NCBI GenBank assembly: GCA_964016885.1
Contig: OZ024742.1
Location: 79,546,001 to 79,610,000 of the forward strand
DNA length: 64,000 bases
Source of the DNA: Eledone cirrhosa
Lineage: Eukaryota
Reading direction: 5' to 3'
The notes beneath the pieces were generated by a model. That model searched no databases, was not told the DNA's origin, and saw only the letters and a program-made list of their open reading frames with translations. This document shows positions 2,215-2,919 of the stretch, one piece after another. Made by a program: the position numbers and the translations under genes. Position 1 is the stretch's first letter, and each line of letters begins with the position of its first letter.

Positions 2215-2431
2215 TAAGACTTCAGTTGCATTTTCGATTTCATCTCTTTTTCTTTATATATATATATATATATAATAATAATATATATGCAGTAAGAAAC
2301 ACAGTAAACCGTGTGTCTAATATTACAAGGGTTGAAAAACCACATTTGTTTGAAATATTTAACCAAGAAGCAGACAGAATGATAAAATAAAATTATATTA
2401 TATTACACAAACCGCCTCAATAACAATTACA

Positions 2432-2507
2432 TTTCTCGAACAGATTATGCCTATTCTGTTTCGCCCTGAGTGTGTTTGCAACAGCCATGGGCATCATCAG
2501 CGAGAGA
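2432..2507 (-). ncRNA. Type I hammerhead ribozyme (slightly decayed copy)
   Basis: Minus strand: tctctcg CTGATGA t gccc..gggc GAAA cagaata ggca taatctg TT cgagaaa; single mismatches in stems I and III. Confidence 0.75.
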
Positions 2508-2607
2508 ATCTGATTAGATGCGACAAACACTATGTACCAACGTTCACACAGAACGTTGGTACATAGTGTGAACGTTGGTACATAGTGTTTGTCGCATTTA
2601 ATCAGAT

Positions 2608-2683
2608 TCTCTCGCTGATGATGCCCATGGCTGTTGCAAACACACTCAGGGCGAAACAGATTAGGGATAATCTGTCCGAGAGA
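2608..2683 (+). ncRNA. Type I hammerhead ribozyme, intact, full stem III
   Basis: tctctcg / CTGATGA / t gccc-22 nt loop-gggc / GAAA / cagatta ggga taatctg / TC / cgagaga. Stems I and III are perfect; predicted cleavage after C2676. Confidence 0.92.
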
Positions 2684-2919
2684 TGCAATTGTTATTGAGG
2701 CGGTTTGTATAATATAATATAATTTTATTTTATCATTCTGTCTGCTTCTTGGTTAAATATTTCAAACAAATGTGGTTTTTCAACCCTTGTAATATTAGAC
2801 ACACGGTTTACTGTGTTTCTTACTGCATATATATTATTATTATACGGCTCAGTATTTTATACTTGGAGCTTAATAATTACAGGGTTTCAATTGGAGTCAT
2901 TAACTCTAATTTTCATTTA

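Follow-up and report, generated by a model that had tools for sequence, protein, structure and literature searches.

The palindromic cassette in the window (the whole stretch of 64,000 nucleotides of Eledone cirrhosa DNA that was analysed) is very probably a single 5'-inverted, truncated copy of a dispersed 478-bp hammerhead ribozyme (HHR) repeat without an open reading frame (ORF), that is, a non-LTR retrozyme, which was likely placed in (TA)n by the reverse transcriptase and endonuclease of a Penelope-like element (PLE) acting in trans. The value of the locus lies in the one-tail rule that its inverted relatives follow and in a testable link to PLEs, not in the palindrome.

Organization of the palindromic element

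The element and its flanks span positions 2254 to 2991. The features are as follows, with m denoting positions in the repeat monomer:

2254..2270, no strand: (TA)n target run of the left flank, read from the sequence
2271..2553, minus: inverted arm, monomer m191-m478, ending at the tail-less 3' end site (blastn against the natural monomer L010:1306-1783, oriented, 94%)
2432..2507, minus: type I hammerhead with a GUU site (2439) and mismatches in both stem I and stem III; damaged and probably inactive
2551..2588, plus: inversion junction with a 3-nt arm overlap (2551-2553) and a direct duplication of 19 nt bounded by a 4-nt repeat; it occurs once in the genome
2566..2844, plus: forward arm, 5'-truncated, monomer from about m195-m196 to m478
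2586..2605, plus: leader with a predicted ability to pair with loop II and a putative role; the pairing potential is conserved in the family
2608..2683, plus: type I hammerhead with a predicted cut after C2676 (motif, fold and family alignment)
2845..2924, plus: one-sided 80-nt tail, monomer m1-m80, with which the next tandem unit would begin; it stops at the second 3' end site
2925..2991, no strand: (TA)n target run of the right flank, common to the tail of the neighbouring coding PLE
2992..7404: coding PLE copy beside the element, 68 bp from the element end across (TA)n

The inverted arms (2271-2549 and 2566-2844) were 279 nt long and 97% complementary, with 7 differences. The initial annotation had described a palindrome at 2270-2844. 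The inverted arms are real, but the element ends at 2924, an 80-nt tail of the same family lying between the right arm and (TA)n, and it is asymmetric because this tail is found on the right arm only. The copy therefore reads inverted m478-m191, junction, about m195/m196-m478 and tail m1-m80, with less than one monomer per arm. The short duplication noticed at the axis was present, with a length of 19 nt and not 16 (copies at 2551-2569 and 2570-2588). Bounded as it is by a 4-nt repeat, it is what would be expected from a slip during copying. Both flanks consist of (TA)n, in which a target-site duplication cannot be read.

All 7 differences between the arms fell within 2406-2517 (left-arm coordinates), and in 6 of them the left arm departed from the family state. 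Of the 279 bp, only a stretch of 112 bp surrounding the HHR contained differences (post hoc p of about 0.02), and the outer 135 bp were identical; conversion of the outer arms or local mutagenesis may be behind this clustering. A-to-I editing was rejected as the source of the differences, as the changes were mixed in type. A 5-nt deletion was common to both arms and otherwise absent from the genome (2 genome matches in all), and the two arms were therefore copied from one template.

Hammerhead motifs on the two strands

The type I HHR described earlier on the plus strand at 2608-2683, with its 7-bp stem I, GUC site, extra U and 22-nt loop II, was confirmed. Stem I is formed by 2608-2614/2677-2683 and is followed by the core (2615-2621) and the extra U2622. 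Stem II has 4 bp (2623-2626/2649-2652) and is followed by GAAA (2653-2656), and stem III has 8 bp (2656-2663/2668-2675), leading to the GUC site with C2676 as the predicted cleavage nucleotide. The hammerhead fold was the MFE structure of the 76-mer (-25.2 kcal/mol). The mirror copy on the minus strand at 2432-2507 had been called slightly decayed. It is there, but its damage is worse than slight: GUC is changed to GUU, stem III has one mismatch and stem I another at its end, and the predicted hammerhead-fold share was 0.0001, against 0.25 for the plus copy.

The loop II of 22 nt was found not to be the family state. It is due to the 5-nt deletion, private to the two arms of this locus, whereas close relatives have 26-27 nt, and the deletion takes away the proximal half of the leader/loop II pairing. 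No curated Rfam hammerhead model matched the locus HHR at gathering score or at E ≤ 1, and miRNA-like hairpin matches at the locus were rejected as below the gathering score; the HHR call is based on core motif, fold and family conservation.

Since the arms stand head-to-head, a transcript entering from either side would begin with the antisense arm. The rod fold proposed earlier for read-through RNA of the cassette was also predicted here (-486 kcal/mol), and it takes in the HHR, which would be buried in duplex, so that the rod would silence the ribozyme. With one usable HHR and no second one in tandem, the window copy cannot release a monomer and probably represents a dead end.

A dispersed family of ORF-less monomers

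The whole assembly, 3.0 Gb in 1,796 contigs, was searched. With the arm as query, 54 matches were obtained from 40 scored of 1,610 candidates, 39 of them being other near-full arms at 94-98%, and exact 16-mer matches numbered 63. The core pattern gave 1,123 intact cores genome-wide in two related families, versus 0 with a reversed control; by hand count, 65 of the first 100 cores listed belonged to family A and 35 to the diverged family B. The earlier suggestion that the locus is not one-off debris was thus borne out.

The family A monomer was defined from match flanks as a circularly permuted unit of 478 bp, with a natural copy in locus L010. Its length across the family is about 450-478 bp, its GC content is 35%, and the longest stop-free frame in the doubled monomer has 101 codons. 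There is one HHR per unit, and head-to-tail tandems are present: periods of 449-473 bp were found in four loci, and of 424 and 521 bp in two loci bearing indels, and the array in L043 comprises five units at 472 bp and an inverted head. No LTR layout was seen in the loci mapped. The suggestion of a non-autonomous, retrozyme-like unit is supported by these ORF-less HHR monomers and tandems. None of the papers listed on retrozymes in octopus or on hammerheads in cephalopods described the family.

Among 115 distinct HHR sequences, 98 have retained GUC. In 56 aligned copies of family A the stem cells were paired in 95% of cases, and helix III in 97%; covariation in these copies was not above that of shuffles. 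The circular natural monomer was predicted to fold well (z = -4.7, 60 shuffles). Family B (L033-L091, e.g. L085, L052 and L077) has a monomer of ~540 bp, a GUA site and the same inversion and TA habits. It shares the core with family A and differs in the stem I sequences, and the first pair of its stem II is A-C rather than G-C in the aligned copies. Its covariation amounted to 5 double-change cells (0 of 500 shuffles), but few related copies lie behind them.

The leader 5' of stem I in family A is complementary to loop II, and the helices, which were selected from the consensus fold, were 90-95% paired in the 56 copies. Family B has an equivalent pairing in different letters (85-91% paired, with one double change in two related copies). 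For locus L002, two-dimensional prediction gave a hammerhead-fold share of 0.18 without the leader, <0.0001 with it and 0.03 in the whole monomer. The pairing may serve to lock the circle, or it may be a pseudoknot of loop I with loop II, a structure outside the scope of the folding program.

Another dispersed repeat of ~200 bp was seen inserted at the AT-rich m478/m1 junction in L097, L054, L063 and L065; it also occurs in the window near 10750-10970.

Insertion ends, tail and targets

Of 109 loci examined, 70 were kept, each matching the monomer over 200 nt or more at 80%; loci of family B and of diverged subfamilies were left out. The loci were picked for holding an HHR and lie mostly on one contig, so that the shares given below are not genome-wide rates. 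It was found that 42 of the 70 loci were 5'-inverted, with break points scattered over m3-m454 of the monomer. The outer 3' ends were concentrated at two sites, which accounted for 104 of 112: 51 at m455-478 and 53 in the tail, the latter comprising 48 at m60-82 and 5 near m48, where the alignment of a diverged subfamily stops. The other 8 ends lay elsewhere. As many as 92 of the 112 ends run into TA.

Both ends lay at the two sites in 36 of the 42 inverted loci. One tailed and one tail-less arm were found in 33 of these 36, two tail-less arms in 3 and two tails in none (p = 1e-7 versus 50:50). One of the three exceptions, L097, has a tail behind the 200-bp insertion. The ends in family B, judged by eye, also fall mostly at two sites, about 88 nt apart. 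Copies freely cross the m478/m1 junction and do not stop at the HHR cut site, which a circular or multimeric template would explain.

The tails of A (monomer m18-40) and B were observed to share a 23-nt stretch at 78% (E = 0.76, a weak match), and the PLE in L112 has a short motif resembling it in its 3' region. The stretch is a candidate protein-binding signal or a chance likeness.

The insertion footprints likely point to PLE enzymes acting in trans. The link to PLE biology in the initial annotation is supported by the 5' inversion, the one-sided tail and the (TA)n ends, all of them as in coding PLEs.

Coding PLEs and the question of mobilisation

The element had been described as having no coding element attached. 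The unit itself includes none, but 68 bp off, on the other side of the (TA)n run, begins a coding PLE copy that has no sequence in common with it. This neighbour has inverted ends of 1,018 bp (3153-4170 and 6385-7404), a 161-nt tail on the left arm only and a broken RT-endonuclease frame at about 4250-5850. It represents a young separate family with 40 copies at 98-100%. The family was searched with its tailed end: an inverted partner arm was present in 7 of 24 other loci, and all 5 of the arms that reach an end stop 161 nt short, as does the partner arm of the window copy. A relaxed pattern revealed no HHR core in the neighbour PLE end. A second, 5'-truncated PLE fragment lies at 8850-9857 of the window, after a (TA)n run.

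No sequence was common to the monomer and the two coding PLE families that were inspected; when monomers A and B were compared by blastn with the neighbour family and L112-L114, one 46-nt match (E = 0.004) was all that emerged, and flanking repeats contaminated the profile searches made with the 3'-end regions. PLEs are a candidate class for the partner of the repeat. The PLE in L112 has a minimal HHR, the single one visible in the coding PLE families inspected. A candidate active element was observed in L041 (1-2577, minus strand) and in L112: this PLE has an open frame of 859+ codons, and its 3' region contains a classic minimal HHR. Pfam gave no family for three PLE proteins, which were identified as such by their motifs and by Atlas clusters with GIY-YIG and RVT_1 members.

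In an alternative reading, the unit would be the pseudo-LTR of a coding PLE, all copies being 5'-truncated ends and the ORF-bearing copies unsampled. All insertion footprints are of the PLE type, many Xenopus retrozymes resemble pLTRs according to 10.64898/2026.07.22.740005, and PLE ORF pieces were found within the 6-10 kb fetched at 22 of 80 HHR loci, compared with 2 of 20 arbitrary loci. However, this excess is not significant (p = 0.14), and the HHR loci are richer in TA than the arbitrary ones. The nearest pieces lay at varied distances, 7 on the same strand and 15 on the opposite one, and the three closest (L041, L090 and L075) are set off from the monomer by TA runs. On this ground L090 and L075 were rejected as autonomous partners. 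The same was done with L041, where a monomer, an ORF start and an 899-codon PLE frame seemed to follow one another, since the stretch after the monomer, including the ORF-like start, is private to that locus and a TA run stands between.

Full monomers, with start and HHR, numbered 53. Immediately upstream, 40 of them have the monomer's own 3' end, 7 have an inverted piece and 6 have other DNA, in three cases with another short dispersed repeat in common. None of the 53 followed a PLE ORF, no PLE protein match was found in the 6 with other DNA upstream, and arrays of pure monomers exist. About 140 of the 1,123 cores were inspected for ORF linkage, and rare ORF-linked copies may exist among the remaining ones. 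Together with an HHR that has helix III and is not minimal, these observations make the pseudo-LTR reading improbable. The possibility named in the initial annotation as refuting its reading, that the other copies are all ordinary pseudo-LTRs of a coding PLE, also disagrees with what was found, namely ORF-less monomers and tandems.

Twin-primed 5' inversions are known for L1, and inversion with microhomology is not exclusive to PLEs. The same retrozyme family might thus be mobilised by a LINE rather than by a PLE, to which no sequence link was found, and LINEs are also named as candidates in PMC7229834. The two fixed internal 3' ends, the one-sided tail, the placement of both arms at a 3' end site and the (TA)n targets nevertheless match the coding PLEs present here, and no poly(A) ends were seen in the 30 flanks printed. 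LINE mobilisation is therefore considered somewhat less probable again than the pseudo-LTR reading.

Origin of the palindrome

A palindrome could also arise by DNA fold-back of a plain copy after its insertion, the deletion being copied along, or as an assembly artefact from fold-back long reads. The private deletion shared by both arms fits such an origin, and among the listed contigs of four runs (X1-X4, of unrecorded kind) that cover the arm none bridges the axis, which is uninformative. Against it, the arms differ at 7 sites, 6 of them in the left arm, hence no read artefact; the left arm stops exactly at the family 3' end site, joined to TA; and 60% of the sampled loci are inverted with the one-tail rule, which DNA fold-back would not give. 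This origin therefore has little probability, marginally below that of LINE mobilisation.

The initial annotation had favoured an ambisense unit and had suggested a genome-wide check of whether copies share the palindrome axis. The check was run and the axis was not shared: the axis junction occurred only once in 3.0 Gb. Because of this, and because the 42 inverted loci break at scattered points, m3-m454, the palindrome is not a propagated unit. No repeated arrangement of the same two-polarity unit was found, the other axes being scattered, and foldable intact HHRs in both polarities are not present at the locus, where the minus copy is damaged. The palindrome is very probably not an ambisense unit but a by-product of insertion.

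Ambisense hammerhead viroids and rod-like RNA circles carry an HHR in both polarities inside a long self-complementary RNA. That the palindrome itself is mobile or functional as such an RNA, with an active HHR in each polarity, is very improbable in spite of the HHR sequence on both strands (its span lies on both strands in 15 of the 70 loci) and the predicted rod, given the single axis, the damaged minus HHR, the asymmetry, the antisense arm always ahead of the sense HHR in read-through RNA, and the account in PMC4209133 of opposite-strand HHR pairs 100-700 bp apart as PLE truncation products. The HHRs of this locus, unlike those of ambisense viroids, are mirror copies made by one inversion in an arrangement that is not propagated, and one of them is damaged.

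Comparison with known elements and proposed mechanism

As far as sequence can tell, the repeat has every testable feature of a non-LTR retrozyme. Like the metazoan ones in PMC7229834, PMC7761336 and 10.64898/2026.07.22.740005, it is an ORF-less monomer with one type I HHR and a GC content below 50%, found in tandem arrays and as dispersed monomers, with a well-folded predicted circle and coexisting PLEs. Helix III is stable, as in most invertebrate retrozymes covered in PMC7761336. Retrozymes were first reported at 150-450 bp; the lengths found here (450-478 bp, and ~540 in family B) fall within the 51-972 bp given in 10.64898/2026.07.22.740005. In contrast to the metazoan retrozymes described there, helix III has 8 bp and the 27-nt loop II is complementary to the upstream leader. 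In most of the copies sampled there are 5' inversions of the PLE type together with an 80-nt tail on one side, features absent from the retrozyme descriptions in the consulted parts of the same three sources; the words 'inversion' and 'tail' do not occur in the main text of 10.64898/2026.07.22.740005.

The resemblance to EN+ PLEs (Penelope/Poseidon, Naiad) and their pLTRs, as portrayed in PMC8557442, PMC11167929 and PMC4209133, extends to partial tandems, an inverted 5'-truncated copy, a one-sided tail, AT-rich/(TA)n targets, an extra HHR base between positions 9 and 10.1 and opposite-strand HHR pairs, which for PLE remnants are already in print at this spacing (PMC4209133). Unlike them, the repeat has no RT or GIY-YIG ORF, carries a full HHR with helix III and did not match the two coding families checked. 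A further likeness is with Chlamys MRC1, an ORF-less PLE parasite with pLTR-like partial tandems and head-to-tail multimers (PMC8557442). The Chlamys elements, however, resemble their autonomous partners at the 3' ends and belong to a clade described as having no canonical HHRs, whereas an HHR is present here and no partner was found.

According to Craig et al. (PMC8557442), the hallmarks of PLEs include partial tandems, a neighbouring inverted copy with 5' truncation and a tail of 30-40 bp that is often confined to one end; the mechanism of tandem and inverted insertion is called undefined. Frangieh et al. (PMC11167929) described a PLE protein that acts on both strands of AT-rich DNA, which it cuts and extends, the tail being the stretch between two internal RT start sites on the RNA. 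In their in vitro PAc system no strand difference in the start site was described, unlike the one-of-each rule found here. Retrozymes were proposed to be mobilised by PLEs by Cervera and de la Pena in 2020, in a source that also notes that most animal retrozymes lack a lock for the circle (PMC7229834). Li, Clavereau and Pollet (2026; 10.64898/2026.07.22.740005) regarded animal retrozymes as non-autonomous derivatives of PLEs, on the grounds of co-occurrence and of similarity to pLTRs. In both works the mobilising enzyme is still argued from co-occurrence and phylogeny. Only 1 of 9 tested elements cleaved in the latter study, and caution is therefore due for the predicted HHR activity here. No literature joining retrozymes, or PLE tails and inversions, with twin priming was found within a mostly open-access search; supplements of PMC7229834 and 10.64898/2026.07.22.740005 may list the family or its inversions.

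The preferred reading, a retrozyme copy inserted by PLE enzymes, would proceed as follows. Tandem source loci would be transcribed and, judging from the retrozyme literature, their HHRs would cut out monomers to be ligated into circles. The PLE protein would nick both strands of (TA)n, and the two free 3' ends would serve as primers for reverse transcription of a single circular or multimeric RNA: synthesis would start near m478 on one strand and at m78-80, 80 nt beyond, on the other. The cDNAs, both ended prematurely, would be joined by a 3-nt overlap, with a 19-nt slip at this locus, and only one of the two head-to-head arms of the resulting palindrome would carry a tail. Several findings stand against this explanation, besides the absence of a sequence link to the coding PLE families inspected, of covariation above shuffles in family A and of a strand difference with PAc in vitro. 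The tail has 80 nt; for PLEs 30-40 nt have been reported, although the neighbour family has 161 nt. The family HHR with its leader was predicted to be mostly misfolded in two dimensions.

The repeat family combines PLE footprints with an HHR monomer that has no ORF. Its one-tail rule is nearly strict, could be scored in roughly a thousand copies and lends itself to testing in the in vitro assay already available for PLEs. The inverted copies are numerous and, if transcribed, would provide long duplex RNA. A broader interpretation, to which slightly less than an even chance is given, is that retrozymes record PLE integration. Every inverted insertion would then represent two coupled primings on one circular RNA, the two cut strands being assigned to start sites 80 nt apart, which would amount to footprint-level proof of PLE mobilisation. 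Likewise, a 478-nt protein-free RNA might be the minimal substrate for the tandem/inverted step, and the leader/loop II pairing in two diverged families might act as a viroid-like lock against self-cutting of the circle.

Other features of the window

Further palindromic or inverted repeat insertions were observed at 2102-2258, 24291-24430, 24689-25341 and 28994-29398. The one at 24689-25341 contains minimal-HHR-like cores on both strands (24990, minus; 25085, plus) and has a relative at 22680-22957. A tRNA-like match at 17347-17418 was just over the Rfam gathering score (34.5 bits), and a near-perfect 600-bp tandem duplication (99.8%) occupies 40428-41623.
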